Origin: Leucoraja erinacea
Lineage: Eukaryota
Direction of reading: 5' to 3'
Assembly: GCF_028641065.1 (NCBI RefSeq)
Contig: NC_073391.1
Coordinates: forward strand, 43,958,001-44,022,000
Length of the DNA: 64,000 nucleotides
Of the stretch, positions 9,341 to 64,000 are shown one piece after another. The notes under the pieces are model-generated. The model had not been told where the DNA came from and did no database searches. It was given only the letters and a program-made list of their open reading frames with translations. The position numbers and the translations under genes are program-made. How positions within the stretch are numbered: the first letter of the stretch is position 1; each line of letters begins with the position of its first letter.

Positions 9341-9549
9341 CAGGTCCTCCAACACCAACAAAGCTGAATATGCCATAGAGTCATAGGGTCGTAGAGTCAT
9401 AGAATGATACGGTGTGGAAACAGGCCCTTCGGCCCAAATTGCCCACACTGGCCAACATGTCCCATTTTACACGAGAGCCACCTCGCTGTGTTTGATCCAT
9501 ATCCCTCCAAACTTGTATTATCCATGTACCTGTCTAACTGTTTCTTTAA

Positions 9550-9740
9550 GAAGGATCTGCAGATGCTGGAAAATCAAAGGTGCACAAAAATGCCGGAGAA
9601 ACTCAGCGGGCGCAGCAGCATCTATGGATCGAAGGAAATAGGCAACGTTTCGGGCCGAAACCTCTGAAGAAACGTTGCCTATTTCCTTCGCTCCATAGAT
9701 GCTGCTGCACCCGCTGAGTTTCTCCAGCATTTTTGTGTAC
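9550..9740. mobile_element. Fold-back Penelope-derived mini-element with a 16-bp target-site duplication
   Basis: ctaactgtttctttaa at 9534-9549 and 9741-9756; ~70-bp inverted arms. Confidence 0.8.
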
Positions 9741-10269
9741 CTAACTGTTTCTTTAACGTTGGGATAGTCCCAGCCTCCATCACCTCCTCTGGCAGCTTGT
9801 CCCATACACCCACAACCCTTTGTGTGAAAATGTCACCCCTCGGATTCCGACTACATTTTTTCCCCTTCGCCCTTAAACCTCTGGTCCTCGATTCATCTAC
9901 TCTGGGCAAGAGACACTGTCAAACCTAAAGTTGGAACAGAATTCAACTGAGAGGTTGCTGTCTGTTCATCTGTCTAACGTGAGAGCAGTTTGTTTTGTTT
10001 AGAGAAACAGCATGAAAACAGGCCCTTCGGCCCACCGGGTCCATGCCGACCATTGATCACCTATTCACACTTGTTCTATGTTATCCTGCATTCTCATCCA
10101 CTCCCTACACTTTAGGGGGGATTTAATGGTTCAATGGTTTCTTTGTTGTCACGTGTATCAAGAAAACGGCCCATCGTGTCTGCTCCACCATGCTATTTTC
10201 CCCTCTCAGCCCCATTCTCTTGCCTTCTCCCCATAGCCTTTGACACCCTTACTAAACAAGAACTTATCA

Positions 10270-10378
10270 TAGAGATAAAGTGCTGGAGTTACTCAGCGGG
10301 TTAGGCAGCATCTCTGGAGAAGAAGGATGGGGGATATTTCGAATAGGGATCCTTCTTCAGACTTATCATCTGATTGTT
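10270..10378 (-). mobile_element. Solo Penelope-derived mini-element with a 12-bp TSD
   Basis: aagaacttatca at 10258-10269 and 10379-10390; ctgaaga...gaaa core on the minus strand. Confidence 0.7.
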
Positions 10379-10769
10379 AAGAACTTATCAATCCCCACTG
10401 TAAAAATACTCCACGACTTGGCCTCACAGCCATTTTCGTTTACAGTTTGGAGATACTGTGTTGAAACAGATCAGCAAGACTATCCCCATAGACAGGATGG
10501 GGATATACATGTCCCCATACATGAACACAATCCCTGGGTTAGTACAGAATGCACAGAACAGCCCACTCAGTCTATGTACGAGGCACCATTTTGCGCCATT
10601 TTACAGTCCCAGCTGCAGGGACCATTGCAGCTGTTGCCTCCATTCCGGACGTCCCCGTGCGTCTTTGGGATGTGGGAGGAAACCGGAGCACCCGGAGAAA
10701 ACCCACAAGGTCACAGGGAGAACGGAGAATTAGTATCAAAGGTGAAAGGGCTTATATTCACGGGAATGT

Positions 10770-11350
10770 AGAACGATGAGAGGAGTCATGGAAACATATA
10801 AAATTTTTAAAGGATTGGACAGGCTAGATGCAGGAAAAATGTTGCCGATGTTAGAAACATAGAAAATAGGTGCAGGAGGAGGCCATTCAGCCAGCACCCG
10901 CCATTCATTGTGATCATGGCTGATCGTCCCCAATCAGTAGCCCGTGCCTGCCTTCTCCCCATATCTCTTGATTCCACTAGCCCCTTCAAGCTCTATCTAA
11001 CTCTCTCTTAAATCCATCCAGTGACTTGGCCTCCACTGCCCTCTGTGACCAGGGGGGTCACAGTTTAAGAATAAGTGGTAGGCGATTTAGCCCTGAGATG
11101 AGGGGAAAATGTTTTCACCCAGAGAGTTGTGCATCTGTGGAATTCTCTGCCACAGAAGGCAGTGGAGGCCAATTCACTGGATGTTTTCAAGCGAGAGTTA
11201 GATTTAGCTCTTAGGGCTAAAGGAATAATGGGATATGGGGGGAAAAGCAGGAACGGGGTACTGAGATGATGTACTTTTAGATGATCATTTTGAATGGCGG
11301 TGCTGGCTCGAAGGGCCGAATGGCCTCCTCCTGCACATATTTTCTATGTC
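10770..11350 (+). mobile_element. CR1 fragment containing a nested opposite-strand CR1 3' end (10853-11047)
   Basis: CR1 3' sequence is interrupted and then resumes. Confidence 0.75.
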
Positions 11351-12094
11351 TTTCCATGTGTTCTAAAAGGGAGTCAGATAAGGAGAGAAGTGGATGTGAA
11401 ATGTAAAGTCAGCTAGAGAGATATGGGTGGAAAGGGACAGGGAGGAGGTGAAAGTGGGGTGGGAATTAAAGGGAAATATGGGACATGGGGATGAATGGGT
11501 GGAAAGGGGAAGGGGGTGAGAAGGGTGATTAGGGTGCTTGGCATTTTTAAATATAGTTTCAACATAAGTTACCTGTCTTTGTACTCTGTGCCTCCAATTA
11601 TAAATCCCAGGATCACATACACACTTTGCTAACCAGTTTCACAACATACGCTGCTAATTATATACATGGACAACTGCATTCTATTGCTCCTGTGCACCCT
11701 TTAGAATTGTGCCATTTAATCTAAATTTTCTCTCAAACTTCCCTGTATTAAGTTTCATCTGTGACTTGCCTGCCCATTACCATAAGATCTTACGACATTG
11801 GAGCAGAATTAGGCTATTCGGCCCATTGTGTCTGCTCCACCATGCTATTTTCCCCTCTCAGCCCCATTCTCTTGCCTTCTCCCCATAGCCTTTGACACCC
11901 TTACTAAACAAGAACTTATCATAGAGATAAAGTGCTGGAGATACTCAGCGGGTTAGGCAGCATCTCTGGAGAAGAAGGATGAGGGGGAATTTTCGAATAG
12001 GGATCCTTCTTCAGACTTACCATCTGATTGTTAAGAACTTATCAATCCCCACTGTAAAAATACTCAACGACTTGGCCTCACAGCCATTTTTGTT

Positions 12095-12378
12095 TGGAGT
12101 TTGGAGATACTGTGCTGAAACAGGCCTTTCAGCCCACCGAGTCCATGCCGACCAGCGATCTCCGTACACTAGCACTATCCTACACACTAGATATAATTTA
12201 CAATGTTACTAAAGCCAATTAACCTGCAAAGCTCCACGTCCTTGGAGTGTGGGAGGAAACCCACGAGGTCACGGGGTGAATGTACAAACTCCACACAGAC
12301 AGCACCTGTAGTCTGGATCGAACCCGGTTCTCTGGCACTGTAAGGCAGCAACACTACTGCTGTGCCACCATGCCGCCC
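12095..12378 (-). mobile_element. HE1/V-SINE-type SINE
   Basis: tRNA-like head, central domain and LINE-like tail are all present. Confidence 0.8.
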
Positions 12379-12654
12379 AACTGTGCCAATGAATTCCACT
12401 GATTCACCACCTTCTGGCTAAAGAAATTCCTCCTCATCTCCATTGTAAAGGACTAGCAAGTTATTCCGGCAACTTATCTATGTCCTTCTGCCATCTATCG
12501 CAAACACTGTTAATCACACTTTCAAACCGTATCCCATCGACAAGTTTGGAAGTTTCGCTGTGACGCCACGTCTAAGTTATTGAGGTGCGTCAGAAAAAAA
12601 TAAATTGTTCCAGTGAACTATCTCGTGAAAACCACCATTGTAAAACTAAAAACG

Positions 12655-17102: not shown

Positions 17103-17157
17103 ACTTAATCTGTTCCCTTCTCCTGAAACCATGCTGTATTCTCCAATGGAGCATACA

Positions 17158-23840: not shown

Positions 23841-24754
23841 GCAGTCAAATAAAATCTCATTCACACAGACTCACTCCACTGTCTACTTTAACAAACAGGG
23901 GGTCTGAGCACACACCACTTCCCCTCCTGTTTAAATTTTGCATTTTACTTTGACCATAAATGGCGACTATCCCTTGACTGAGTTTGGGCCCAGTCAGGTT
24001 GAGAATGTGACAGGAACTATGGCCACTAATAATAAACATATGCTGTAAGGAAACATAAGCAGGTTCCAAGGCACAGTCTTGATACATCAATCACAAATAC
24101 CTTTACCTAACAGAGCAATCAGTCTTCACTCTGCATGGACTTATTGGTAGAGTTGCTGCCTCACAGCGCCAGAGACCTGGGTTCGATCCTGACTTTGGGT
24201 GCTGCACGTACGGAGTTTGAACATTCAGCTCGTGACTGCGTGGGTTTTCTCCGGGTGCTCCCTCTGTAAAAGTAAAATTGTCCCTAATATGTAGGGAGTG
24301 GATGAGGAAAGAGGATAATATAGACCTCGCTGTGTAAACGGGTGATCGATAGTCAAAGATAACTCAGCAGGACAGGCAGCATCTCTGGAGTGAAGGAATG
24401 GGTGACGGGTTCGGGTGGTGATCCAGGTCTGAAGAAGGGTCCTGACCCCGAAACGCCACCCATTCCTCCTCTCCAGAGACGCTGCCTGACCCGGCAGTTG
24501 CTCCAACTTTTTGTGTCTATCTTCGGTGTAAACCAGCATCTGCAGTTCCTTCCAACACATTTTGACTGATCGCTGGTCGGTGTGGACTCGATGGGCTGAT
24601 GTCAGCTGCTTTATCTCTGAAACTAAAAAAAAATTAAACCACATTAACCCCAAACCCCTAGGAGAGGGGTGATTTGTGGTCGGTTCAACATGTTCCAGCT
24701 AAATGCAGAAATGAACAGCGTGGAGCCAGGTTCCGAACACAATTGTGTTTCTGT

Positions 24755-24957
24755 GTCGGAATGAACTGCAGATGCTGGTTTAAACCGAAGATAAACACAA
24801 AATGCTGGAGTAACTCAGCGGGGACAGGCCGCATCGCTGTGGAGAAGGAATGGGTGACGTTTCGGGTTGAGACCCTGGAGAAGAGTGTCGACCACTCTTT
24901 CTCCTCAGTCAGAGATGCTGCCTGTCCCGCTGAGTTACTCCAGCATTTTGTTGTCTA
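24755..24957. mobile_element. Fold-back Penelope-derived mini-element with a 16-bp TSD
   Basis: acaattgtgtttctgt at 24739-24754 and 24958-24973. Confidence 0.75.
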
Positions 24958-25249
24958 ACAATTGTGTTTCTGTTGCAGTGAACATCCACACCAATGTTCC
25001 TCAAGGTTAAAACTTCCCTTGACAGTGACTTAACAGGGAGCGGTTGCCAGAATTATTTCTTATGTTAGCTAATGGGCTGGGGAATGTGGAATTCTGTGAT
25101 TCTGTGGCCATTCGCCAACTCATAGACAGCTCTTGGCAAAACTACCAGCGGTTGTAGCCAGTTGGATTGAACCCAAAATGTAAGGATCACTCGCTATCAA
25201 GATTGTCGAATACACTCATGGATAATTACCCAGAGAATAAATGGATGTG

Positions 25250-25760
25250 GTTAAGAAGGAACTGCAGTTGCTGGAAAATCGAAGGTAAACAAAAATGCTG
25301 GAGACACTCAGAGGGTGCAGCAGTATCTATGGAGCGAAGGAGATAGGCAACTTTTCGGGCCGAAACCCTTCTTCAGACAGATGGGGGGGGGGGCGGAGAG
25401 GAAAGGAAAAAGAAGAAAGGTAAAAGGGAGGAGGAGGAGCCCGAAGGCTGAGGGATGGGAGGAGACAGCAAGGGCTAACAAAATTGGGAGAATTCAATGT
25501 TCATGCCCCCAGGATGCAGACTGCCCAAGCGGAATATGAGGTGCTGTTCCTCCAATTTGTTCGCTCTGACCATGGAGGCGACCCAGGACAGAGAGGTCGG
25601 ATACGGAATGGGAGGGGGGAGTTGAAGTGCTGAGCCACCGGGGGAGGTCAGGTTGGTTGATGCGGACCGAGCGGAGGTGTTCGGCGAAACGATCGCCACG
25701 CCTCCGCTTGGTCTCACCGATGTAGATCAGCTGACATCTACAGCAGCGGATGCAATAGAC
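25250..25760 (-). mobile_element. Penelope-like retroelement relic: GIY-YIG endonuclease plus terminal repeat
   Basis: LVYCIRCCRCQLIYIGETKRR.GDRFAEHLRSVR (GIY-YIG signature) followed by the hammerhead-type repeat at ~25345-25378. Confidence 0.85.
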
Positions 25761-25932
25761 GAGGGTGGCACAGTGGTGCAGCGGTAGAGTTGCTGCCTTA
25801 CAACCAGAGTCCTGGGTTCGATCCTGACTACAGGAGCTGACAGTATGGAGTTTGTACGTTCCCCCCTTGACTTGCGTGGGTCTCACCCCGGGATTTCTTT
25901 CCCCCACACTCCAAAGACGTACAAGTTTGTAA

Positions 25933-30160: not shown

Positions 30161-30789
30161 CCAGATAGGCACAGAAATGCTGGAGTAACACAGCGGGACG
30201 GGCAGCATCTCTGGATAGAAGGAATGGGTGACGTTTCGGGTCGAGTCCCTTCCTCAGACTGACGAAGGGTCTCGACCTGAAAACTTACCCATTCCATCTA
30301 TCCAGAGATGCTGCCTGTGCCGCTGTGTTACTCCTGCATTTTGTGTCTATCTTCAGTGCAAATCAGCATCTGCGGTTCCTTCCTGCCCAGGACAATTCCC
30401 AGTCTGTGTCGCTCCCACTATCCGTCAGAATATTTTCAATGGTTATGGTCACCCTGTTGTTAAGCTGGAAAGAGTCCATATACGATTTTTGAGGATGTGG
30501 CCAGGAATTGATGGCCTGAGCTACAGGGAGAGGTCGAGCAGGCTGGAACTATATTCCTTGGAGTGCAGGAGGCTGAGAGGTGATCTTATAGAGGTGTATA
30601 AGATCATGAGATGAATAGATAGGGTGAATGCATAGCGTCTTTTACCCAGAGTAGGAGAATCAAGAATCAGAGGACATAGGTTTAAACGGAGACACCTAGT
30701 GCATTGGGTGATCGCTGGTCAGCACGGACTTGGCGGGCCGAAGGGCCTGTTTCTACACTCTATCTCCAGAGTAAAACTAGAGTGAACAT

Positions 30790-31210: not shown

Positions 31211-31719
31211 TATGAAAGGAATTGAGCAGGATTTTGTTTTCCTGTTCATAGCAAGGGCTGCATAGAGCCTTACATAGTCATATCCCATGGTTGCTAGAAC
31301 ATTTTTACTGGTATCCTAACTCGAACAAAAAAAAATCTCACATATTTATGTAACTGCTAATTTCCAGTCGAACACGATGAAAAATTTATGAAGCAATCAG
31401 TCCTGATGCCAGGGCTGGAGGCTGCTGCTGTAAATCACCGATCCCCACACTGGCAGTCATTCCTGTAATTGCCAGGATTACAGAGACTCGAACCTCAACG
31501 CATGGCATCTTTGGATAATAGAAATGGGTTTAGTTTAGAGATACAGCACGGGAACAGGCCCTTCGGCCCATCGAGTCCATGCCGACCAGCAATCACACTA
31601 TTCTACACACTAGGAACAACTTACAATTTTACAGAATCCAATTAACCTACAAACCTGAGATAGACAGAAAATTCTGGCGTAACTCAGCGGGACAGGCAGC
31701 ATCTCTGGATAGAAGGAGT

Positions 31720-31755
31720 GGGTGACGTTTCGGGTCAGGACCCTTCTTCAGACCC
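31720..31755 (-). ncRNA. Minimal type I hammerhead ribozyme motif (best-preserved copy) within a fold-back Penelope-derived element
   Basis: Minus strand GGGU-CUGAAGA-A-GGGU(CCUG)ACCC-GAAA-C-GUC-ACCC: core, stem II, palindromic ACGU stem III, GUC site and 4-bp stem I. Confidence 0.65.
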
Positions 31756-32354
31756 TTCTACTCGACCCGAAACGTCACCCATTCCTTCTCTCCAGAGATG
31801 CTGCCTGTCCCGCTGAGTTACTCCAGCATTTGGACCTCCCCAACACCGGGAACAATCTTCCTGCATCTAGCCTATCCAACCGCTTGAGAATTGTGTAAGT
31901 TTCTATGCTTTGCCCAGGTCCCTGCTCTGTTTTGCAGCTTTCCACCCCCTACTACAGTTGCTCCTGAGAAGCATCGCGACCCGAAGCATCTCCTCTTCAT
32001 TCCCACCATAGATGCTGCCTGACCCGTTGAGTTCCTCCAGCACTTTGCATTTTGCATTGAATTTACTCTCCCGCGCCATCTTCTGGCAGCAGAGGCAACT
32101 ACAACGGATACATACATAAGCACAGATTGGAGGATAGACAGAAAATGCTGGAGTAACTCAGCGGGACAGGCAGCGCCTCTGGATAGAAGGAATGGGTGAC
32201 GTTTCCGGTTGAGACCTTTTTCCAGACTGAAGACTCTGAAGAAGGGTCTCCACCCGAAATGTCACTCATTCCTTCCCTTTAGAAATGCTGCCTGTCCCGC
32301 TGAGTTATTCCAGCAGCATTTTGTGTCCACCTTCGATGTAAACCAGCCGATGAT

Positions 32355-33359: not shown

Positions 33360-33985
33360 TGTGTTGGGAGGAACTGCAGATGCTGGTTTAAATCGATGAT
33401 AGACACAAAAAGCTGGAGTAACTGAGCGGGCCAGGCAGCACCTCTGGAGAGAATGAATGGGTGACGTTTCAGGTCGAGACCCTTCTTCAGACCGAAAGTC
33501 ACGGGAAAGGGAAACGAGAGAGATATAGAGACGACAGTGTAGAGAGACAAAGAACAATGATTGAAAGATATGCAAAAAAGTAATGATGATAAAGGAAACA
33601 GGCCATTGTTAGCTGTTTGTTCGGTGAAAACGCAAGCTGGTGAGACTTGGGTGTGGGGGAGATAGAGAGAGAGAGGGAATGCCGGGGTTACTTGAAGTTG
33701 GAGAAATCAATATTCATACCACTGGGCTGTAAACTGCCAAAGCGAAATATGAGATTCCCTTCCTCCAATTTGCGTTTAGCCTCACTCTGACAATGGAGGA
33801 GACAATGGACAAAAAGGAGAATTAAAATGTTTAGCAACCGGGAGATCAGGTGGGTTCATGCGGACTGAGCGAAAGTTGTTCAGCGAAACGATCGCCCAGT
33901 GTACGTTTGGTCTCGTCCATGTATAAGAGTCCACATCTAGAACAACGGATACGGTAGATGAGGTTGGAGGAGGTGCAAGTGAGCC
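33360..33985 (-). mobile_element. Penelope-like relic: GIY-YIG domain, 3' UTR and hammerhead-bearing terminal repeat (33460-33493)
   Basis: TCTSSNLIYRIRCSRCGLLYMDETKRTLGDRFAEQL; GGU-CUGAAGA-A-GGGU(CUCG)ACCU-GAAA-C-GUC-ACC. Confidence 0.85.
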
Positions 33986-33994
33986 ACTGTCTAA

Positions 33995-34626
33995 CTAGAT
34001 GCAGGAAGATTGTTCCCGATGTTGGGGAAGTCCAGAACAAGGGGTCACAGTTTAAGGATAAGGAGGGAAGCTTCGACCGCCGGCCCTGCAGTCTGCGGTG
34101 CTTCTGTCTGCGGCGCGGCGGGGACTTTAAATCTTCGACCGCCCGCCTGCGGCCTACACCAACTTAAAGCCGCGGTCTCCGGTGGGGAAGAGCCGACTCT
34201 GGACTTACCTGGACTTGTACCTTGTCCTTTTACCATCTGGACGCCCGCAGCAACGGCTGCGGAGGGTTGAGGTCCCGACCACGGGGGGAAATGGAGGAGG
34301 GCTGCCCAAATTGTGTGCCTTCCACCACAGTGATGAATGCTGTGGTGGAAGTTTATGTTAAATTTTTATTGTGTTTTTGTGTGTGTTCTTTATAATTGTA
34401 CCGCTGCTGACATATTCATTTCACTTGCACTTATGTGCAATGTGACAAATAAACCGTATTGTATTGTATTGTATTGTATAAGTCTTTTTAGGACCGAGAT
34501 GAGAAAACATTTTTCGCACAGAGAGTGGTGAATCTCTGGAATTCTCTGCCACAGAAGGTAGTTGAGGCCAGTTCATTGGCTATATTTAAGAGGATGTGGC
34601 CCTTATGGCTAAAGATATCAGGGGGG
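33995..34626 (+). mobile_element. CR1 fragment lacking its 3' tail, with a nested GC-rich element (~34063-34479, (ttgta)n tail)
   Basis: CR1 sequence stops at ggataagg, resumes at aagtcttttt, and ends at the GPCR junction. Confidence 0.75.
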
Positions 34627-35110
34627 ATTAAAAGGCGATCGATCCATTCAAGGATAGTCCAGAAAAAATCAGAGTAAAAGGTTAGCCTAATATTACAGTA
34701 CCACGGGACGTTGTTAATGGTGTACAAAGGTTCGTACAGGAAGTACCAGGGTATATTTTTGACACAGCTCACAACACAAACTGTTCCTATGACAATCCCT
34801 GCCACTCTTTCGGTGCAATATTTTGTTTTCATCTTCGGGCAACAAATGGCTATAAATCGATCAAAGGTGAACCCGACTGTTAGCCAGACCGAGCTGTCCC
34901 TGGCGATGAGAATGAGGACTATTCTAGCGCTGCAGATGGGAGTGGTGTGGATCACGAGGGCAGGAAAGTATAGCATACTGATCCGGTGAAACACCACAGC
35001 CACGACAAGGAACAGGAGGTCAGCCGCCGCCATGCCCATCAGGTACCGAGAGATGCATCTGGAAAGACCACATTTCCCCCGAGACAGGATCACTATCGTC
35101 ACCAAGTTAC
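34622..35110 (-). pseudogene. GPR139/GPR142-like class A GPCR, exon 2 (TM1 to the start of TM5), 3'-truncated
   Basis: NLVTIVILSRGKCGLSRCISRYLMGMAAADLL, VWLTVGFTFDRFIAICCPKMKTKYCT and NIPWYF; polypyrimidine tract and AG acceptor at 35111-35112; the frame runs into antisense CR1 and stops at 34488. Confidence 0.85.
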
Positions 35111-35257
35111 CTGATTATAAAGGAGGAGAAGACATCATTTTAATTCCTGAGTTTGTGCCGCACACAAGTAGCTTAAGGTCATTGTTGATAGGTGCAGAAT
35201 TGGGCCCGCCAAGTCTAGTCCACCATTCAATTATGGCTGATCTGTCTTTTTTTTAAA

Positions 35258-38445: not shown

Positions 38446-38740
38446 AGTTTGTACCTTCTCCCGGTGACCTACGTGGGGTTCCTCCGAATTGGTATCCTCC
38501 CACTCTCCAAAGACGTACAGGTTTGTAAGTTAATTGGCTTGGTAAATGTAAAAAATGTCCCCGGTGTGTGTAGGATAGTGTCAATCAACGATACAAAGGG
38601 TGTTAATATGCGGGGATCGCTGGTCTGCGTGGATCTGGTGGATCGAAGGGCCTGTTTCCGCGCTGTAACGCTAAAGTAAACTAAACGATCAACTGATTCA
38701 AATCATCTTCCCTCCAACAGCTGCTGAAGAGTATGATGTG

Positions 38741-38873
38741 TTGAAGAAGGAACTGCAGATGCTGGAAAGTGGACAAAAAATGCTGGAGAAACTCAGCGGA
38801 TGAGGCAGCATCTATGGAGATTAAGGACCCGCTGAGTGCCTCGCCCGCTGAGTTTTCCAGCATTTTTTGTCTA
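38741..38873. mobile_element. Fold-back Penelope-derived mini-element with a 17-bp TSD
   Basis: ctgaagag(t/g)atgatgtg at 38724-38740 and 38874-38890. Confidence 0.7.
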
Positions 38874-39614
38874 CTGAAGAGGATGATGTGGTGGCTTGGA
38901 AGTGCCTTTGACCAAGTTGCGTCTCGCAGACTTGGGGATATATTTTGCGTCTATCAACGTGTGTTTACTCAGCACTGGGGCACGTTGTCATAATTGCTCT
39001 TCTGCGCCACCATGTCGCCTTGTTGATATTTGGGAAAGTCAAACTCCCCATAGTTGCAGTTATTTGCGATCTCTCCCCATATTTGCCCCTCTAATTCCCG
39101 CTGACTATAAGGAGCCCCAGGTGCAATAACAGTGATCCTGCCTTCCTCCTCCTCAGTTCCACCCTTATAGCTCCCACTTGCGTTTAATTCTTTAACTCTT
39201 GGTTATATCTGTGAAGGATAATTTAAATTGCAGATTATAAAAAATATATTGTAGATATATTCAGCAACATATGTTAACCTTCATCTCACATAACTGCAGA
39301 CGCCTGAGTTGGCGTGCAAATATGCAGCAGGCATGAATTCCGTTCACATGTCAGACACTTCCCTCAGTGAGAAAACGCGTTGATATTCAAAACCCGGAGA
39401 GAATAAATAGGGGGGGGGGGGGGGGGGGGGGGGGGGTCCCAAAGGCCGTTGGAGGCAAAGATACAGTTGGAGGTGTGCAATTCATCAACACATTAAAACA
39501 AGCTGCCTTATGGTATCTGTTGTTTAACATATTCATTTTAAGTATCTTTGAACTCCGCTCCATGAGGTTTTAGAATACGATAGCTAGTATCGACCATTCT
39601 GTCATCTGGGGAGA

Positions 39615-44060: not shown

Positions 44061-44846
44061 TCACTTGTGAACTCGCTGGTGCCTCAGCAGTGTGGATGAC
44101 TGCGCAAATCCTTTTCCACATACAGAGCAGAAGAAGGGTCTCTCCCCGGTGTGAACTCGCTGGTGCTTCTGGAGGTGGGAGGACCGGGCAAATCCTTTCC
44201 CACACACGGAGCAGATGAACGGCCACTCCCCGGTGTGAACTTGCTGATGCGTGATCAGCACCTTCTTGCTCTTAAAGCTCTTCTCGCAGTCGGAACATTT
44301 GAAGGGCCGCTGGTTGGTGTGAACCAGTTGGTGAGCCGTGAGCTGGGAGGACTGAGGGAATCCCTTCCCGCACTCCGAGCAGGTGAACGGCCTCTCCCCG
44401 GTGTGTGTGCGCTGGTGCACCGTGAGGTCAGATGATCGCCTGAAGCCGGTCCCGCAGTGAGAGCACCTGAACGGCCTCTCGTCGGTGTGAATACGCTGGT
44501 GGCACGTTAGTTCCCCCGAGCTCTTGTAGCACTTGGCACAGTCCGGGCAGTTGAAAGGTCTCTCGTCGGTGTGAACCCGCCGATGCTTCAACAGGGCGGA
44601 GAAATGCGTGAATCCTTTGGCGCACACGGAGCAGGTGAACGGCCTCTCCCCGGTGTGGCTGCGCCGGTGGATCTCGAGTTCGAAAGGGTAACTGAAGCCC
44701 TTCCCACAATCTCCGCACTTGCACGGTTTCTCCCCGGCGTGGCTGTGCCTGTGCCTCGACAGGCCGGACGCCCGGCTGAAGCCTCGCCCACACACGGAGC
44801 ACGTGTACGGCTTCTCCACGCAATGAGCCGGACCCTTCGCTTCCAT
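44061..44846 (-). CDS. C2H2 zinc-finger protein, 261 aa, 9 tandem fingers (ZNF-A)
   Basis: Intact C-x2-C-x12-H-x3-H repeats with TGERP linkers; in-frame upstream TGA at 44874-44876; strong 3' splice site (tttgtag|ggg) at 44939-44940. Confidence 0.93.
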
Positions 44847-45269
44847 GTCTCGGGGTGCAACAACGAGCGGGTCTCAGTGGACAAGGTGAGAGCGCCGTCG
44901 CTTTGGCGCCTGTCCGAAAATCCCCGCCTTCTGAACCCCTACAAAGCGAATTGAAAGCAGGAGAAGGAGAAAAATAATGGAGCACGAAAGTTTGCATCAA
45001 ATAACTGAAAAAGACTGAAACCGAGTGAAAAGGATGTGGTGATGTCGTGATTAAGATTGCCACGTAAAACACAACAAAATGCCCAACATGTATTCAGGAG
45101 GAGGGAGTAAGCTGGAAGATAGTGACGGAGAGGAAGTCTATACCTCAGCAGACTGACCTGAATTTTGACTATGCTTCCCAAATTGGCAAACTTCAGCTGT
45201 AAGATTAAGAAGTAAGGGCACGATAATTCAGTTTCCTTCTGGGCAGTATACGAAATTGTTTTGTTTAGG

Positions 45270-48434: not shown

Positions 48435-48735
48435 TTAGTTTTAGAGATGCAACGCAGAAATAGGCCCTTCGGCCCACCGAGTCTGAGCTGAACAGCGATC
48501 CCCGCACACTAACACTACCTCACACACACTAGGGACTATTTACAATTTTACCAATGCCAATTGATCTACCAACCTGTACGTCTTTCAAGTGTGAGTGGAA
48601 ACCAGAGCACTCTGAGAAAACCAAAGCAAGGTCACGGGGAGAACGAACAAACTCCGTACAGACAGCACCCGCAGTCAGAATCGAAGCCGGGTCTCTGGCA
48701 TTGTGAGGCAGCATCTCGACCGCTGCACCACTATG
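48435..48735 (-). mobile_element. HE1/V-SINE-type SINE inserted in the ZNF-B coding exon region
   Basis: Full antisense SINE abutting the finger array. Confidence 0.85.
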
Positions 48736-49443
48736 TTCAGCCTGGAGGAACACAGGGACGCTTACACCACGGAGAAGCCGTGGAAGTGTGGGGACTGCGG
48801 GAAGGGATTTAATTACCCGTCGCAGCTGGAAACGCACCGGCGCAGCCACACGGGGGAGAGGCCGTTCATCTGCTCCCTGTGCGGAAAGGGCTTCACCAAG
48901 TCGTCCGGCCTGGTGACGCACCAGCGGATTCACACGGGGGAGAGGCCGTTCACTTGCCCTCTGTGCGGGAAGAGGTTCACCGAGCTCTCCAAGCTGCAGG
49001 CCCACCGGCGGGTCCACACCGAGGAACGGCCCTTCCAATGCCCCGAGTGCGACAAGAAGTACAAGAGCAAGAACGACCTGCTGACCCACCAGCGCACCCA
49101 CACGGGCGAGAGGCCGTTCACTTGCTCCGCGTGTGGGAAGCGGTTCTCCTGGTCGTCCAACCTGCTGCGGCACCAGCTGGTCCACGCCGACGACAGACCT
49201 TTCCGCTGCTCCGCCTGCGAAAAGAGCTTCAAGACGGCGAGGGACCTGCTGACCCACCAGCTCGTCCACACCGACCGCAGGCCCTTCCAGTGCGGTGTGT
49301 GCGGGAAGAGCTCCAAGAGCAAGCAGGACCTGCTGACCCACCAGCGCACTCACACCGGGGAGAGGCCGTTCACCTGCTCCGTGTGTGGCAAGGGATTCAC
49401 CCGCTCCTCCGACCAGCTTAGACACGAGCGGGTGCACTCGTGA
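48733..49443 (+). CDS. C2H2 zinc-finger protein, ~236 aa, 8 fingers (ZNF-B)
   Basis: Intact finger array; first ATG at 48733 (the ORF-track start at 48703 is a GTG); candidate exon acceptor ctttacag|ggt at 48147-48148. Confidence 0.88.
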   Translation: MFSLEEHRDAYTTEKPWKCGDCGKGFNYPSQLETHRRSHTGERPFICSLCGKGFTKSSGLVTHQRIHTGERPFTCPLCGKRFTELSKLQAHRRVHTEERPFQCPECDKKYKSKNDLLTHQRTHTGERPFTCSACGKRFSWSSNLLRHQLVHADDRPFRCSACEKSFKTARDLLTHQLVHTDRRPFQCGVCGKSSKSKQDLLTHQRTHTGERPFTCSVCGKGFTRSSDQLRHERVHS

Positions 49444-50235: not shown

Positions 50236-50839
50236 TCTGAATTCACTGGTTTTCGATGTTACCGCACTAATGTTCATTTTCTTGAAGCATTTCTCCATCA
50301 AGTGATTATCCAATTCTGTTTCAATGGCTAAAACCGATCGTCTATTTATGATCTGTCAAGAAGGATACGAATCTTAATCACTCAAGACAGTGAAGTGCAA
50401 TGAACTTCTATGGACTGTCCTTGGTTGCACTAAGGATATTCAGTTTTGTTTTGTTCTTGTATTGTGGTTAATAATTTATTGAATTAATAAGACCTAGTTC
50501 TACTATCTGTTTTGGATTCTTTATCAATCGCTGTTGTTGTCAGGGGTTATGGGGAGAGGGCGGGAGAATGGGGTTAAGAGGGAAAGATAGATCAGCCATG
50601 ATTGAATGGTGGAGTCGATTCGATGGACAGAATGGTCTAATTCTTCTCCTATCACTTATGAACATGAAGTCGGCGACCATTGATGACTAACTCTTTGGCG
50701 ACAAGAATCGAGAGAGGGAGAGTCAAGACTATTTAATTGTTATACATACTGACAATGGAACAATGAAATTCTTGCAGCACCATTCCCAGACTGAGAGTCA
50801 GGGAAGTGAAAGACATACAGATAAGTACGAGTATCTTGT

Positions 50840-50968
50840 GTTAAAGAGGGAACTGCAGATGCTGGAGAATCGGAGGTTACACAGAAAAGCTGGAGAAACT
50901 CAGCGGGTGCAGCAGCATCTATGGAGCGAAGGAAATAGGCAACGTTTCGGGCCGAAACCCTTCTTCAG
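50840..50968 (-). mobile_element. Solo 129-bp Penelope-derived mini-element with a 13-bp TSD, starting at the hammerhead core
   Basis: acgagtatcttgt at 50827-50839 and 50969-50981; the element begins CTGAAGAAGGGTTTCGGCCCGAAACGTT. Confidence 0.8.
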
Positions 50969-51644
50969 ACGAGTATCTTGTTCCACATTTTCTTTGATGC
51001 CTCGTTTTTGCACCTTACCCTTCTTTATCTATGTGTCTCCCTCTTTCCTGACTGAAGAAGGGTCTTGACCTGACACGTCACCCGTCCCTTCTACCCAGAG
51101 ATGCTTCAGCATTTTCTGTCTATCTTTAGACTAAACCAGCCTCTGCAATTACTTCCCACTCCCAAGATCATAGTTCTACAACGTAATCTAGATCATCCAC
51201 TGTGTCACCGGGAAAGGGCTCAGTGGTTACGCAGGTAGTTGGCACTCATGGGCCAAGTCCTCTGGAAATATACTAATATCAACACCACTTACAAAAGATT
51301 GATTTTGAAAAGTTATATTATTCAGATAATCATTCATACATTGCATGGAAACAAGTCCCTTTGCCCACCACGTCTCTGGCAGACTACAGTCACAATAGTT
51401 GCTCTACATACTTTCGCTTAGCACTACCATGGTCTAGTTTAATCTGAATAAGTGATAATTTATTGAATACACTGTTATTCTAATGTTGCCTTTAATGTGT
51501 CTGTAAAACTGTAAATCAAGAATTTATTGTTCTGGTTTTTATCTGTTGTACATTACATGACAAATAAACACTCTTGACTGTGCCTTTAATTTCTTCTGTC
51601 TGTCGTGGATAGACTAATTTTCCTGTTGAAATTCTGGGGATTTT

Positions 51645-52197: not shown

Positions 52198-55100
52198 ATA
52201 GAAACATAGAAACATAGAAATTAGGTGCAGGAGTAGGCCATTCGGCCCTTCGAGCCTGCACCGCCATTCAATATGATCATGGCTGATCATCCAACTCAGT
52301 ATCCAGTACCTGCCTTCTCTCCATACCCCCTGATCCCCTTAGCCACAAGGGCCACATCTAACTCCCTCTTAAATATAGCCAATGAACTGGCCTCAACTAC
52401 CCTCTGTGGCAGAGAGTTCCAGAGATTCACCACTCTCTGCGTGAAAAAAGTTCTTCTCATCTCGGTTTTAAAGGATTTCCCCTTTATCCTTAAGCTGTGA
52501 CCCCTGGTCCTGGACTTCCCCAACATCGGGAACAATCTTCCTGCATCTAGCCTGTCCAACCCCTTAAGAATTTTGTAAGTTTCTATAAGATCCCATCTCA
52601 ATCTTCTAAATTCTAGAGAGTATAAACCAAGTCTATCCAGTCTTTCTTCATAAGACAGTCCTGACATCCCAGGAATCAGTCTGGTGAACCATCTCTGCAC
52701 TCCCTCTATGGCAATAATGTCCTTCCTCAGATTTGGAGACCAAAACTGTACGCAATACTCCAGGTGTGGTCTCACCAAGACCCTGTACAACTGCAGTAGA
52801 ACCTCTCTGCTCCTATACTCAAATCCTTTTGCAATGAAAGCTAACATACCATTCGCTTTCTTTACTGCCTGCTGCACCTGCATGCCTACCTTCAATTACT
52901 GGTGTACCATGACACCCAGGTCTCGCTGCATCTCCCCCTTTCCCAATCGGCCACCATTTAGATAATAGTCTGCTTTCCTGTTTTTGCCACCAAAATGGAT
53001 AACCTCACATTTATCCACATTATACTGCATCTGCCAAACATTTGCCCACTCACCCAGCCTATCCAAGTCACCCTGCAGTCTCCTAGCATCCTCCTCACAG
53101 CTAACACTGCCCCCCAGCTTAGTGTCATCCGCAAACTTGGAGATATTGCCTTCAATTCCCTCATCCAGATCATTAATATATATTGTAAATAGCTGGGGTC
53201 CCAGTACTGAGCCTTGGGGTACCCCACTAGTCACTGCCTGCCATTGCGAAAAGGACCCGTTTACTCCTACTCTTTGCTTCCTGTTTGCCAGCCAGTTCTC
53301 TATCCACATCAATACTGAACCCCCAATGCCTTGTGCTTTAAGTTTGTATACTAATTTCTTATGTGGGACCTTGTCGAAAGCCTTCTGGAAGTCCAGATAC
53401 ACCACATCCACTGGTTCTCCCCTATCCACGCTACTAGTTACATCCTCGAAAAATTCTATAAGATTCGTCAGACATGATTTACCTTTCGTAAATCCATGCT
53501 GACTTTGTCCAATGATTTCACCACTTTCCAAATGTGCTGCTATCCCATCTTTAATAACTGACTCTAGCAGTTTCCCCACTACCGATGTTAGACTAACTGG
53601 TCTGTAATTCCCCATTTTCTCTCTCCCTCCCTTCTTAAAAAGTGAGGTTACGTTTGCTACCTGCCAATCTTCAGGAACTACTCCAGAATCTAAAGAGTTT
53701 TGAAAGATTATTACTAATGCATCCACTATTTCTGGAGCTACTTCCTTAAGTACTCTGGGATGCAGCCTATCTGGCCCTGGGGATTTATCGGCCTTTAATC
53801 CATTCAGTTTACCCAACACCACTTCCCGGCTAACCTGGATTTCACTCAATTCCTCCAACTCCTTTGACCCGCGGTCCCCTGCTATTTCCGGCAAATTATG
53901 TATGTCTTCCTTAGTGAAGACGGAACCAAAGTAGTTATTCAATTGGTCTGCCATATCCTTGTTCCCCATGATCAACTCACCTGTTTCTGACTGCAAGGGA
54001 CCTACATTTGTTTTAACTAATCTCTTTCTTTTCACATATCTATAAAAACCTTTTGCAGTCAGTTTTTATGTTCCCTGCCAGTTTTCTTTCATAATCTATT
54101 TTTCCTTTCCTAATTAAGCCCTTTGTCCTCCTCTGCTGGTCTCTGAATTTCTCCCAGTCCTCTGGTATACTGCTTTTTCTGGCTAATTTGTACGCATCAT
54201 CCTTCGCTTTGATACTATCCCTGATTTCCCTTGTTATCCACGGATGTATTACCTTCCCTGATTTATTCTTTTGCCAAACTGGGATGAACAATTTTTGTAG
54301 TTCATCCATGCAGTCTTTAAATGTCTTCCATTGCATATCCACCGTCAACCCTTTTAGAATTAATTGCCAGTCAATCTTGGCCAATTCACGTCTCATACCC
54401 TCAAAGTTACCTTTCTTTAAGTTCAGAACCATTGTTTCTGAATTAACAATGTCACTCTCCATCCTAATGAAGAACTCAACCATATTATGGTCACTCTTGC
54501 CCAAGGGGGCACGTACAACAAGATTGCTAACTAACCCTTCCTCATTACTCAATACCCAGTCTAAAATAGCCTGCTCTCTCGTTGGTTCCTCTACATGTTG
54601 ATTTAGATAACTATCCCGCATACATTCCAAGAAATCCTCTTCCTCAGCACCCCTGCCAATTTGATTCACCCAATCTATATGTAGATTGAAGTCACCCATT
54701 ATAACCGTTTTGCATTTGTCGCACGCATTTCTAATTTCCTGTTTGATACCATCTCCAACTTCACTACTACTGTTAGGTGGCCTGTACACAACACCCACCA
54801 GCGTTTTCTGCCCCTTAGTGTTTTGCAGCTCTACCCATACCGATTCCACATCCTCCAAACTAATGTCCTTCCTTTCCATTGCATTAATCCCCTCTCTAAT
54901 CAGTAACGCTACCCACACCTCCTTTTCCTTTCTGTCTATCCCTCCTGAATATTGAATATCCCTGGATGTTCAGCTCCCAGCCTTGGTCACCCTGGAGCCA
55001 TGTCTCCGTGATCCCAACTATATCATAGTCATTAATAGCTATCTGCACATTCAACTCATCCACCTTATTACGAATGCTCCTTGCATTGAGACACAAAGCC

Positions 55101-56190: not shown

Positions 56191-56448
56191 CCATTCAGTA
56201 AGATTATTTGCATCCATGAATGCCGCATTCTGCATGTTTCTTGATCCCATCAAATGTCCAAAGCAATCGACATTCCTATTGAATGTAATCAAATGTATTC
56301 CTATTGAATGTGACCGAGCCGCCACTGTCCCGTTGGGGAACGGATTGCAAAGACTAGGAAGAAGCAGAGTTCTCTCTAATCTTTGGCAAGAAGTGTGTCG
56401 ACCCGAAACCTTTTCTCCAGAGATGCTGCCTATCCCGCAGGGCTACTC

Positions 56449-57437
56449 GCCCCATAGATCTGCTGTGCCAGTGCATTGAGCAAGTCAAAGACTGGATGTG
56501 CCAAAATTTTCTCCAACTAAATAAGGACAAAACGGAGATAATTGTTTTTGGTGCTAAAAAAGAAAGGCTTAGAGTAACCCAACACCTTCACTCTCTGACC
56601 CTGAAAACGTCAAACAAAGCCAGAAATCTTGGGGTCATTATGGATTCAGATTTAAATTTCGACAGTCACATCAAATCAGTAACAAAATCGGCCTACTATC
56701 ACCTCAAAAACGTAGCAAGATTAAGAGGACTCATGTCAGCTCAAGACTTAGAAAAATGTGTACATGCCTTTATTAATAGCAGGCTAGATTATTGTAACGG
56801 TCTCCTTGCAGGTCTTCCTAAAAAAACTGTCAGGCGGCTACAGCTTGTTCAGAACGCTGTTGCTAGAGTTCTAACAAAGACCAAAAAATTTGAACACATT
56901 ACACCAATTCTTAAATCCTTACATTGGCTCCCTGTATGTCAGAGAATTGATTTTAAAATCCTGCTGCTCACCTATAAATCACTACATGGTTTAGGACCAA
57001 AGTATATCACTGACATGCTTCCACTATATAAGCCTTCTAGACCGCTAAGATCTTCTGAAACCAATCTGTTAGTGATTCCCAGAATAAATACAAAACATGG
57101 GAAAGCAGGATTTAGTTACTATGCAACAAATAGCTGGAATAAACTTCCTGAAGATTTAAGACTTGCCTCAACTTTGACCACTTTTAAAACAAGACTGAAA
57201 ACTTTTATGTTTACTTTAGCTTTCAGCTAAATCTTAACTACATTGCACTTTTAACTTTTGCACTTTTTATAATGCATTTTTAATTTTGCTTTTCTTTTCT
57301 TTTAGTTCTATTTTATTTCTTTTTATTATTTCATTTTATTGTATGACATGTTTTTATGTGAAGCACTTTGAGTCTGCCTCGTGTATGAAATGTGCTATAT
57401 AAATAAAGTTGCCTTGCCTTGCCTTGCCTTGCCTTGC
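56449..57437 (+). mobile_element. L2-clade LINE 3' fragment with an uninterrupted ORF and a (gcctt)n tail
   Basis: PIDLLCQCIEQVKDWMCQNFLQLNKDKTE...SRLDYCN...HITPILKSLHWLPVCQRIDFK; 6-bp TSD ctactc at 56443-56448 and 57438-57443. Confidence 0.9.
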
Positions 57438-58199
57438 CTACTCCAGCATTTAGTGTCCAACTTCAGTGTAAACCAGCATCTGCAGTTCCTCACCTACCTT
57501 CGCTCAACAAATTCATCTCATCTTGGTGTTGAACGCCATCTCTTTATTTTGGGACTGTTGTGTGGATGCCCACCTGTACTTAGGTGAAGCCTGTGAAATA
57601 ATGTGGTACTTGCGTCCTGTCGGTCTGACGAAAGGTTCCGACCCGAAACGTCACCTATCCATGTTCTCCAGAGATGCTGCCTGACTCGCTGAATTATTCC
57701 AGCACCGTGCTCTTTTCTGTAAACCAACATCTGGAGTTCCTTGTTTCTACATTGTCCTGTATGTGTTTTGTTGTGAAGAGACTGCGGGTGGAGGGAGGGA
57801 ATGTGGTTTTGGATTTTTGCACAGGAAGAGAGATTTTGTGTGTCACTGAGATCGCAACTTACAAGCTTTGGGGAATAGGAAAGAATAGAATTAAACGGAC
57901 ATTCAAAAGCAAAACACGTGTAATTAAACCTGGTACATTAAATGTTTATTTCTCCACAGATTTTGCCTGACCTGCTGAGATTTGCAGCATCTTCTATTCT
58001 CTGCCATAAACATTAGAAATGTGTGTTCCGAATTCCTGCTCCATACTGGAGAGAAAACCTGCATACAGTTTTTGAGTGAAGATGGGACCAGATAACAAGT
58101 CAACTGTCTATTCCCTCCATGAATGTTGCCTGACCTCGCTGAGTTGCTCCAGCACTATGCGTTTCACTCAAGATTCCAGCATCTGCAGTTCCTTAGCCA

Positions 58200-58485: not shown

Positions 58486-58582
58486 TTAGCTCACTGACTG
58501 TGTGGTGGGCGGAGGGGAGATACCGCTCATTTGCTTTTCCTGTTTTGTGATTGAGTTTTCAACTCAATTGTCCAACCTGGAG

Positions 58583-59641
58583 ATGCTGAAGAACACACGT
58601 AATACAGAGAGGCAGTGGAAATGCGGTGAATGTGGGAAAGGCTTCCGCTTCCGTTCACAGCTGGAAATACATCGTCGCAACCACACCGGGGAGAGGCCGT
58701 TCACCTGCTCCACATGTGGCAAAGGATTCACTCTGTCCTCCACCCTGCTGACACACCAGTCCATTCACACGGGGGAGAACCTGTTCACCTGCCCGGTGTG
58801 TGGCAAGGGATTCAATTTTTGGTCCCACCTGCTGAGACACCAGCGAGCCCACAGTGACAAGCGGCCGTCTCGCTGTCCGCGCTGTCGGAAGAGGTTCAAG
58901 AGCGCCGAGGATCTGGCCAAACACCAGCTCGTCCACACGGAGAGGCGTTTCTGTTGCTCCCGCTGTGGGAAGGTGTTCAAGCGATTGCCCAACCTCGTGG
59001 AGCATCAGCACAGTCACACTGGGGCGAGGCCCTTCTCCTGCTCTGTGTGCGGGAAGGGATTCACGAGGTCATCCACCCTCCTAACGCACCAGAGCGTTCA
59101 CAACGGGGAGAAGCCCTTCCCCTGCTCCTTGTGCGGGAAGGGCTTCACGCGGCCATCCAACCTCGCCACCCACCAGCTCGTCCACACCGACGAGAAGCCT
59201 TTCGGGTGTTCCGTCTGCGAGAAGACCTTTAAAGCCTCCAGGGATCTGCTGAGGCACCAGCCGGTCCACTCCGGGGAGAGGCCATTCACCTGCTCCGTGT
59301 GCGGGAAGGCGTTCAGCCTCTCCTCCAGTCTTCTGACCCACCGACGCAGTCACTCCGGGGAGAAGCCCTTTGCCTGCCCCATGTGCGGCAAGCGGTTCAT
59401 GTACTCGTCCCACTACACCGAACACCAGCTGGTTCACTCTGAGCACAGGCCTTTTAAATGTGCCGAATGCGAGAAAAGTTTTAAAAGCACAAAGGACCTG
59501 CTGAAACACCAGCGCATCCACACCGGGGAGAGACCCTTCATCTGCTCTATATGTGGGAAAGGGTTCACTCGCTCGTCCCACCTAATGAGGCACCAGCGGG
59601 TTCACAGAAGGCTGCAGAGTTTGGATGCTGACTTCTTTTAG
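58583..59641 (+). CDS. C2H2 zinc-finger protein, ~352 aa, 12 fingers (ZNF-C)
   Basis: Intact finger array; first ATG at 58583; the frame is open from 58502 through a degenerate finger. Confidence 0.9.
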   Translation: MLKNTRNTERQWKCGECGKGFRFRSQLEIHRRNHTGERPFTCSTCGKGFTLSSTLLTHQSIHTGENLFTCPVCGKGFNFWSHLLRHQRAHSDKRPSRCPRCRKRFKSAEDLAKHQLVHTERRFCCSRCGKVFKRLPNLVEHQHSHTGARPFSCSVCGKGFTRSSTLLTHQSVHNGEKPFPCSLCGKGFTRPSNLATHQLVHTDEKPFGCSVCEKTFKASRDLLRHQPVHSGERPFTCSVCGKAFSLSSSLLTHRRSHSGEKPFACPMCGKRFMYSSHYTEHQLVHSEHRPFKCAECEKSFKSTKDLLKHQRIHTGERPFICSICGKGFTRSSHLMRHQRVHRRLQSLDADFF

Positions 59642-59920
59642 ACTTTAGAGATACAGCACGGAAACAGGCCCTATGGCCCAACGCGTCCGTGTCGACTAAC
59701 GATTACCCCGTGCACATATCACTATCCTAAACACTGGGGACAATTTACAAATTTTACCAAAGCCAATTAACGTACAACATGCACGTCTTTGGACCAGGAG
59801 AAAGCAGGAGCACCCGGAGAAAACCCAGCGGGTCACAGAGAGAACATACAAACTCCATACAGACAGCACCCGTCGTCATGATCAAACCTGGGTCTCTGGC
59901 GTTGCGTCACCGTGCTGCCC
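59635..59920 (-). mobile_element. HE1/V-SINE-type SINE overlapping the ZNF-C stop codon
   Basis: The tail tttagactttagagatacagc begins at the ORF end. Confidence 0.82.
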
Positions 59921-61637: not shown

Positions 61638-61866
61638 CCCTGGGTGGAAATGTCAAAGATTTGAGTGCTTAGCTTTAAAGTGAGAATGGCAAAGTTTGAA
61701 GGAGAAGTGCGGGACACGTTATTTTTAATTGGAACTTGATGGGTGCCTGGAACATATTGGAGGTAGTTTAGTTTAGTTTACCTTCACCTGTACTGAGGTA
61801 TAGTGAAAACCTTTTGTGGCGTGTTAACCAGGCAGCAACAAGACAATACATTATCACAAGTATACC

Positions 61867-62170
61867 ATAGAAACATAGAAAATAGGTGCAGGAGTAGGCC
61901 ATTCGGCCTTTCGAGCCTGCACCGCCATTCAATATGATCATGGCTGATCATCCAACTCAGTATCCTGTACCTACCTTCTCTCCATACCCCCTGATCCCTT
62001 TAGCCACAAGGGCCACATCTAACTCCCTCTTAGATATAGCCAATGAACTGGCCTCAACTACCTTCTGTGGCAGAGAATTCCAGAGATTCACCACTCTCTG
62101 TGTGAAAAATGTTTTCCTCATCTCGGTCCTAAAAGATTTCCCCCTTATCCTTAAACTGTGACCCCTTGTT
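61867..62170 (-). mobile_element. CR1-type LINE 3' fragment
   Basis: Young CR1 3' end with tail. Confidence 0.9.
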
Positions 62171-62744
62171 TTGAAAATATCGAGGTAGATTATTTAGTGG
62201 TGTTTGAGGCTTTTGGATGGGCATGTAGTTATGGAGGGATATGGATCATGTACAGGTATGACATTAGTTTAACATGGCATCATGTTTAGCAAAACATTGC
62301 AGGTTGATGGGCCTGTTCTTGTGCTATTGTGCTGTACGGTTAAATGTTCTATGGAATCAAGATCTAGGAAAGAAAAAGTCAGCCAGGCTGCGTCACTGTA
62401 GAACATGGATGGCAAACGTTTCGGGTTGGGAACTTTCATCAGACTGATTGTTGTGTGAAGGGGGGGAAACTGGAAGAAAGGAGGGGCAAGACAAAGCCTG
62501 GCAAGTGATGGGTGGATACAGGTGAGAGGAAGAGTTTCATAGGCAGATGATTCGACAGAGGCCAAAGATGAAATGACAACTTGTGTGAGTTCAGGATAGA
62601 AGAGGAATTGTGAAGCCTGAGGAAGCAATAGAGGTGGCATGGGGGGGGGGGAGGGGAGAAATAAATGTGAATCTAGGTGGGGCACAGGGAAGTGGGGGGA
62701 AGGGGGAAAATGGGCGTTAGTCCAGGTGGTGAATCTGTAACTAG

Positions 62745-63042
62745 TTTCAGTTTAGTTTAGAGCTGCAGTGTAGGAGAACACCCTTCCACTATGTTCGCGC
62801 TAACCAGCGATCACCCTGTATGCTAGTGCTATCCGACGTGCTAGGTAAAATGTACAGAAGCCAATTAACCTACTAACCCGCACATCTTTCGAATGTGTGG
62901 GGAAACCGGAATACCCAGAGGAAACCCACATGCTCACTGGAAGAAAGTACAAAGTCCGAACAGACAACTCCCGTAGTCAGGATCGACCCTGGGTCCCTGG
63001 CACTGGAAGGCAGCAACCCTGCTGCTGCGCCATAGTGCTGCC
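62745..63042 (-). mobile_element. V-SINE-type SINE (diverged)
   Basis: Head, body and tail homology. Confidence 0.7.
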
Positions 63043-63334
63043 CTACACCTGGAAAATGTGAAAATCTGGTTTTGTAAGCAGCAAGTCCCCCCACACCAGG
63101 TTTTTCCTTTGTTCCTTCCCTCATATTTTTAAATGTGTGTATAATATATATATACACAAACATGTTTATATATATATACACAAATACTGAACTCTTTTCT
63201 CCTTTATTATGTTGTTTACATATTCTGTTGTGCTGCTGCAAGTAAGAATGTCATTGTTCTATCTGGGTCATTTGAAAATAAAACACGCTTGACTCTTGAA
63301 CTGGAGAGATTGGGGAGAAGAATTGTTGTCACCA

Positions 63335-63760
63335 AAAGGGCGTGCAATGGCGACGTGATCACCCAGAATTCCTGCGCATCAGAAACGGCCCCATCGGTGA
63401 AGACTGGGTTCCACTGCGCCTGCGCAGAATCGGGCAATGCCTCGAGCATGCGCAGTGTGCAGAGTGGAGAGGGACAAAGGCGGGCCCGACGGGTCGTAGA
63501 ACGGTCGGTATTTGTGAGTGTCGGGGTGGAAATGGACTGGCTGGTGGGTGATAGAGCGATATGAACACCCGGTGTAGACCTCAGGGTTTAATTAAAGGCT
63601 CCCGCGCCCAGTACTTCTGGAACCCGACTGCCAGTCACAGAACAACCGGGCAGCCGGCCGCCATTTTGGACACGGCGAAACCAGGGCGCATGCGCGATTA
63701 CCTTGGTCCCGGGCACTGAGTGGGGGCGGCTCGACTGAACTGGGTCCTAGTGCCCGGGTA
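63335..63760. promoter_or_regulatory. CpG island with NRF1 and YY1 motifs; its gene probably lies beyond the window
   Basis: TGCGCCTGCGCA at 63415-63426, GCGCATGCGCG at 63686-63696, GCCGCCATTTTG at 63657-63668. Confidence 0.7.
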
Positions 63761-64000
63761 GCTGAACCTCACACGTACACTAAAATGCTGGAGAAACTCA
63801 GCGGGTGCAGCAGCATCTATGGAGCGAAGGAAATAGGTGACGTTTCGGGCCGAAACCCTTCTTCAGGAGTAGGCATACCTTGAGGAGATATCGCAGTGGA
63901 GTAGACAAAGTGTTCAAGAAGGAACTGCAGATGCTGGGAGATCGAAGGTACACAAAATTGCTTTCTTCAGGGATTTGTGAGTGTCGTGAGTGAGTGAAGA

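Follow-up and report, generated by a model that had tools for sequence, protein, structure and literature searches.

What kind of element is the short hammerhead-bearing unit that recurs throughout a 64-kb stretch of the Leucoraja erinacea genome (NC_073391.1, positions 43,958,001 to 44,022,000; hereafter the window), and does it propagate itself? A preliminary description of the window counted about 20 copies, derived the unit from the terminal repeat of Penelope-like elements (PLEs) and proposed a retrozyme-like non-autonomous family. Our analysis indicates that the unit is the pseudo-long terminal repeat (pLTR) of abundant Neptune/Nematis-type PLEs, and that its solo and fold-back copies probably do not form a family that propagates itself but are dead-end by-products left when those elements are copied, a reading to which we assign a probability of roughly 0.6.

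We number the unit from the C of CUGA as position 1, with the predicted hammerhead cut between positions 28 and 29. Scanning the window by nhmmer with a profile built from its own copies gave 56 matches, well above the earlier count, spanning 3198-63960 on both strands amid CR1-type long interspersed element (LINE) remnants, three C2H2 zinc-finger exons and a seven-transmembrane (7TM) receptor fragment. The tail at the 3' end is reached by 26 of the 56, and 25 have a head-to-head partner. The terminus gcatctgcagttcctt, previously described as conserved, is missing from the copy at 10258. The very high copy number was confirmed in a genome sample of 100 evenly spaced 10-kb stretches, in which 486 matches occupy 4.6% of bases; extrapolated from this sampling, the genome holds 0.90-1.25 million matches, or about 0.87 million insertions. 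An exact 75-mer of the youngest subfamily alone occurs 9,080 times.

The derivation from a Penelope pLTR was borne out by the position of the unit, which follows the 3' untranslated region (UTR) of GIY-YIG relics and, in tandems, runs on into the start of an open reading frame (ORF). Both GIY-YIG relics reported in the window (25481-25769 and 33691-33995; Pfam GIY-YIG E 6.5e-4, under the gathering score) lie upstream of units, as claimed. One belongs to a 5'-truncated PLE of subfamily A (25252-25769, minus strand) with a broken GIY-YIG C-terminus, a pyrimidine-rich 3' UTR and a tailed unit at 25252-25376; the other to a 5'-truncated PLE of subfamily B (33365-33995, minus strand) with a frameshifted GIY-YIG, a long 3' UTR and a tailed unit at 33365-33490. 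In most of 20 loci selected for GIY-YIG, the unit likewise forms the 3' end and is preceded by a body whose length is graded between loci, from ~0.2 to 1.7 kb. A 3-kb relic with the unit at its 3' end combines the PLE N-terminal motif, reverse transcriptase (RT) motifs (recognised by eye, in broken frames), the linker and the endonuclease, so that the unit is linked to an RT plus a C-terminal GIY-YIG endonuclease, as in endonuclease-containing (EN+) PLEs. The translated segment P0001 contains a CX4CxxC linker and a CCHH-type GIY-YIG endonuclease motif (Pfam GIY-YIG E 2.9e-4, under the gathering score). This linker conforms to CX2-5CxxC, the RT-endonuclease linker that together with a CCHH endonuclease marks Neptune/Nematis according to PMC8557442. 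The Neptune/Nematis assignment is a provisional one, made by linker and endonuclease motifs.

Moreover, the pLTR lies on both sides of the ORF. Tandems of UTR, unit and ORF start were found at four loci (L282, L283, L284 and L286), and in a subset of copies the sequence past the tail is conserved and holds a PLE-like N-terminal frame that joins the RT body; the unit therefore serves the autonomous element as 3' pLTR and as 5' UTR alike. In subfamily A the first in-frame ATG lies ~35 nt past the tail, and a near-full-length copy (L285) begins within the tail. One frame is open through the unit in subfamily A. A coding role was nevertheless dropped, since subfamily B is shifted by a 1-nt indel and contains stops, and we treat the unit as 5' UTR. 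Sites resembling a splice donor and a splice acceptor lie, respectively, across the likely ORF start codon just past the tail and immediately before CUGA (63867-63909, minus strand, and L251-L297); 5' introns are known in PLEs. Walking upstream from the RT first reached a segment with a DNA-transposon-like sharp end, not a pLTR. At loci L131-L149 (G000, e.g. C6:66888230), the GC-rich N-terminal region of the PLE is fused upstream to a segment with a sharp fixed-motif start and varied flanks. We take this motif to resemble a DNA-transposon terminal repeat, and the segment is possibly a DNA transposon with a captured Penelope fragment.

The ends of the copies bear on how they arose. Solo copies could be ordinary 5'-truncated insertions, an explanation already entertained; in its simple random form it fails, because 5' starts are fixed near CUGA and 3' ends fall at two fixed sites. 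Among 291 unpartnered random matches, 106 end at positions 84-101 (the first 3' site) and 137 at position 118 or beyond (the tail end). To call the 5' ends, copies were compared by homology with 27 ORF-linked references. Position 12 is reached by 206 copies; 120 of them end by -14, and the 5'-end hazard at +12 to -14 is 0.032/nt, compared with 0.003-0.011 at positions 13-59 and 0.008-0.015 upstream, that is, three to ten times and two to four times as high. At the hammerhead cut site no pile-up of 5' ends was seen (3/291 at positions 27-31). As an independent check, 50 young copies were taken in contig order (passing over two neighbours on the list; L207 and L208 make up a single insertion) with a search pattern that excludes copies cut inside 6-80. 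Thirty-three begin no more than 16 nt from CUGA; a target-site duplication (TSD) of 9-18 bp adjoins 17 of them, and 17 of the 50 carry at least 67 nt of UTR. In 70 short copies, upstream bases fade from T at 0.91 at -1 to background at -7. Origin from a spliced RNA, using the CAG/T acceptor-like site, is disfavoured because this base bias is gone beyond -6 and TSD-bounded solos carry 0-16 extra nt.

In the window, all five TSDs taken to bound solo units are present, the pair at 38724/38874 with 1 mismatch in 17; only one bounds a full solo unit. This unit (50827-50981, minus strand) has the CUGA start (50968), the hammerhead motif, the tail end and a 13-bp TSD at 50827 and 50969. The insertion at 10258-10390 (minus strand, 12-bp TSD) is a tail-less unit that stops at the first 3' site (model position ~93-98). 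A near-identical copy at 11915-12040 (unit 11915-12014) has the same flanks, so that, once the unit had inserted, the host segment must have been duplicated or else moved by another retroelement. The remaining three are composites in which a tailed half meets an inverted half without a tail, head to head, and none has an intact hammerhead core. At 9534-9756, a tailed half (9546-9663, minus strand) and a tail-less inverted half (9668-9741, plus strand) lie within a 16-bp TSD, without an intact CUGA core; at 24739-24973 (16-bp TSD) the tailed half runs from model position 8 and the inverted half is degenerate; and at 38724-38890 (17-bp TSD with the mismatch) the hammerhead region is missing from both halves. 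A further head-to-head pair, at 30161-30385, has the CUGA edge as the end of both halves. Of 90 head-to-head pairs, 55 join a tail-less and a tailed half, the textbook PLE arrangement (PMC8557442), and a 30-40 bp tail at one end plus an inverted 5'-truncated copy is likewise characteristic of EN+ PLEs. A near-perfect 0.8-kb palindromic insertion at L208:801-1640, accompanied by a TSD-like repeat, sets a tail-less GIY-YIG stub back to back with a tailed one.

The copies also include composites. Thirty ORF-start loci were fetched and 29 analysed, L278 having been dropped for orientation. At 11 of the 29 the ORF breaks off and joins a unit starting at -6 to +2, six of these joins running through A/T-rich spacers of 3-20 nt, including A9 and TA11; of the other loci, four connect to a UTR-extended unit and two to an internal position, and 12 lack any unit within 260 nt. 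Locus L281, a 2.9-kb copy bracketed by a TSD, itself begins at CUGA; it breaks within the RT and is joined there to a second unit at the CUGA edge of the latter. In the window, the composite at 63777-63960 (minus strand) comprises a tail, ~45 nt of post-5'-pLTR sequence that holds the likely ORF start codon, and a new unit that begins at CUGA (63866) and extends as far as the first 3' site; the hammerhead reported at 63837-63870 is its downstream half. It is likely a template-jump product. We infer that such joins form when RT reaches the 5' end of an RNA, adds bases and jumps; second priming or DNA repair could give similar joins. At 810 places the genome exactly matches a 3'-cut unit fused to the start of another. 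In the 100 listed among these 810, cut points counted by eye range from 26 to 48 with no peak at 28, and hammerhead-cut 3' ends were on this count rejected as jump acceptors.

We propose that PLE mRNA begins at about TCAGT just before CUGA, which we take to be an Initiator-like motif and which may also serve as helix I. The PLE protein would prime cDNA internally, ~95 or 130 nt into the mRNA, as that of the Poseidon element PAc of Anolis does in vitro; in PAc, the tail is accounted for by two start sites of the RT (Frangieh et al. 2024, PMC11167929). RT would then run off the mRNA 5' end just before the hammerhead. The short cDNA could integrate alone to yield a solo unit, meet a second cDNA primed on the other target strand to yield a head-to-head insertion, or gain untemplated bases and jump to another RNA to yield composites and probably longer elements too. 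Templates would be copied without hammerhead cutting. A bolder version, which is possible but which we rather doubt, is that PLEs replicate by an obligatory strong-stop, in which RT primes near the 5' end of the element's mRNA, copies 95-130 nt up to a start site at the hammerhead's front edge and has to jump to an mRNA 3' end to rebuild the pLTR, with hundreds of thousands of stubs as failed jumps. The hammerhead cut in the 3' pLTR might supply ~30 nt of terminal redundancy for this jump; a look for ends at the cut site gave this step no support. A strong-stop or jump model for PLEs was not found in the literature searched, whose coverage is incomplete, and a supplementary figure of PAc genomic coverage in PMC11167929 may already show such a 5' edge.

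Several observations weigh against our reading. No intact full-length ORF was found among the loci examined. TSDs were recovered for only 24/255 unpartnered random copies (4/253 in the null), which leaves homology as the basis for most 5' ends, and the 5' pile-up would be exaggerated by the UTRs of any subfamilies outside the sample. The 5' ends taper over -2 to -6 rather than falling on a single base, and a cap-templated extra G at the edge is marginal (11/23, p=0.05; 4/10, p=0.28). Seamless UTR-unit joins occur, including at least 6/29 ORF-start loci at which UTR precedes the unit; they show that some templates were read-through RNAs or that jumps can be precise, two origins indistinguishable here. 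The tree used below (132 rows, 93 columns, with 37 inverted copies left out) is weakly supported. Finally, no pile of RNA molecule starts at TCAGT was seen in three RNA runs, which are oligo-dT and single-cell libraries of unproven species match.

The best-surviving alternative, itself rather unlikely, is that every copy stems from a read-through transcript, by way of its 3' pLTR, and that the 5' edge is not an RNA end; it would instead be a strong RT pause or repair hotspot where the C/U-rich UTR, or a protein-bound hammerhead fold, has its border. The upstream UTRs do hold C-rich runs, so the cDNA could form a G-rich structure; TCAGT pairs weakly with positions 29-34 as helix I, and the taper over ~5 nt fits a pause. 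However, the same edge occurs in subfamilies whose UTRs differ greatly, few ends of young copies lie within the C-rich tract, and ORF-start copies such as L281 begin at this edge as well. Untemplated A/T and jumps are, moreover, typical of an RT that has reached the end of its template.

Solo copies might alternatively resemble short interspersed elements (SINEs), some being transcribed from an internal promoter and moved in trans by the PLE protein without the ribozyme. Their discrete, fixed 5' and 3' ends and their own TSDs are SINE-like. In addition, the pLTR of rotifer PLEs can contain promoters and is all that trans-mobilisation requires in cis (PMC3846280), and non-autonomous Chlamys elements exist (PMC8557442). 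Such copies do not, however, form a lineage of their own: the weakly resolved tree of 132 rows contains no solo-specific clade, and solo and linked labels require 35 changes on it compared with 36.8 when shuffled (157/500 shuffles as low). Short and long copies are interleaved, identical sequences are common to solo and UTR-linked copies, and both types occur in every subfamily class. Insertion of PAc also needs RNA beyond the RT start site (PMC11167929), which solos lack. We consider this explanation improbable.

The retrozyme-like family of the preliminary description would be amplified through RNA that the hammerhead cleaves itself, as circles or monomers, and would place potential cleavage sites in host transcripts, those of zinc-finger genes among them. 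Its starting point, a minimal type I hammerhead motif, was confirmed. The predicted motif has the core, stem II and a palindromic ACGU stem III stub; an intact core is present in 109/281 random matches, and core plus 4-bp stem II in 64/281. In the window, 33 matches span the hammerhead, 14 with an intact core and 10 of these also with a 4-bp stem II. The five cores listed as best are located as reported, with CUGA at 31751, 33490, 50968 and 63866 on the minus strand and 57625 on the plus strand; the last opens a full unit (57625-57746) with an intact core, a 3-bp stem II and the tail. Non-LTR retrozymes, moreover, derive from pLTRs and occur in one chondrichthyan (bioRxiv 2026.07.22.740005).

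Most copies, however, have a broken core. The core at 31720-31755, ranked first earlier, sits in a head-to-head pair (31651-31833) whose predicted long hairpin (-133 kcal/mol) buries the motif. Across 7/7 copies folded, the hammerhead dimer fold lies 15-31 kcal/mol above the dimer minimum free energy, tertiary and protein effects being outside the folding model. No Rfam hammerhead family matched at E<=1, and the only matches were chance miRNA-like hairpins caused by fold-back copies. The pairing of stem II across variants proved one-sided, ACCC/GCCC changing U-A to U-G without compensation. Nor is the core conserved beyond its flanks, the test that had been proposed at the outset: the match rate is 0.919 at non-CpG core positions and 0.917 in flanks (254 copies, p=0.89), G12 decays like other CpGs, and copies decay neutrally after insertion. 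Tandem Repeats Finder detected no tandem array of the unit in the window, and only 17/486 sampled matches have a head-to-tail neighbour. In the three RNA runs ~0.1% of reads match the unit, 76-96% of these running into unlike sequence; no read starts or ends are piled at the cut site or the 5' edge, in libraries poorly suited to this question and also to small circles. With no arrays, no pile-up of copy or composite ends at the cut site, no solo lineage and a core kept no better than its flanks, the retrozyme reading is largely refuted as a route of propagation and very improbable.

The features of the unit match published systems in large part. Metazoan PLE pLTRs carry minimal type I hammerheads (Cervera and De la Pena 2014, PMC4209133) that, like the unit, have an extra base after A9, a G10.1-C11.1 pair and palindromic 15.2-16.2 without stem III, and that occur mostly as single or opposite-strand motifs from truncated PLEs. 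The unit differs in its 4-bp stem II, its helix I of only 2 bp and its far greater copy number, and a sharp 5' boundary at the motif was not found in the accessible account of PMC4209133. EN+ PLEs of the Neptune/Nematis type (Craig et al. 2021, PMC8557442) share the truncated 5' ends, an inverted 5' copy, a tail of 30-40 bp at one end, partial tandems, the CX2-5CxxC linker and the CCHH endonuclease, a likeness of layout and motifs; here, in contrast, most insertions are the 95-130-nt terminal unit alone. PAc also has two internal RT start sites bounding a tail, about 85-130 nt past the hammerhead, and its use of uncut RNA as template and its ability to extend both target strands match our proposal (PMC11167929). 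Its ORF starts at stem II, whereas that of subfamily A has its first in-frame ATG past the tail; the clades differ. Non-LTR retrozymes (Cervera and De la Pena 2020, PMC7229834; Li et al. bioRxiv 2026.07.22.740005) resemble the unit in being non-coding, carrying a type I hammerhead and being related to PLE pLTRs. They are defined by head-to-tail tandem units and circular RNAs; no tandem array was seen here, nor any circle in RNA libraries poorly suited to showing small ones.

CR1-type LINE 3' ends with an 8-bp tandem tail are the dominant repeat of the window, and a long CR1-type copy at 52200-55000 (minus strand) has open endonuclease and RT frames. A 290-aa open frame at 56358-57230 (plus strand) resembles, by eye, the C-terminal portion of an L2/CR1-group LINE protein and has no Pfam match. 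Three exons that encode C2H2 zinc-finger arrays, each of 8-10 or more fingers, lie at 44061-44873 (minus strand), 48616-49443 (plus strand) and 58490-59641 (plus strand), and a rhodopsin-family 7TM receptor fragment at 34488-35114 (minus strand) has a frame that continues into a LINE remnant.

Taken together, the element itself is ordinary, its type, hammerhead motif and layout having been published already. Its value is as a natural dataset, in which the insertions record both ends of PLE cDNA. The fixed 5' edge and the jump composites make the strong-stop/template-jump model directly testable. The fixed start likely marks the start of the RNA, and it hints at how a PLE rebuilds its end repeats.

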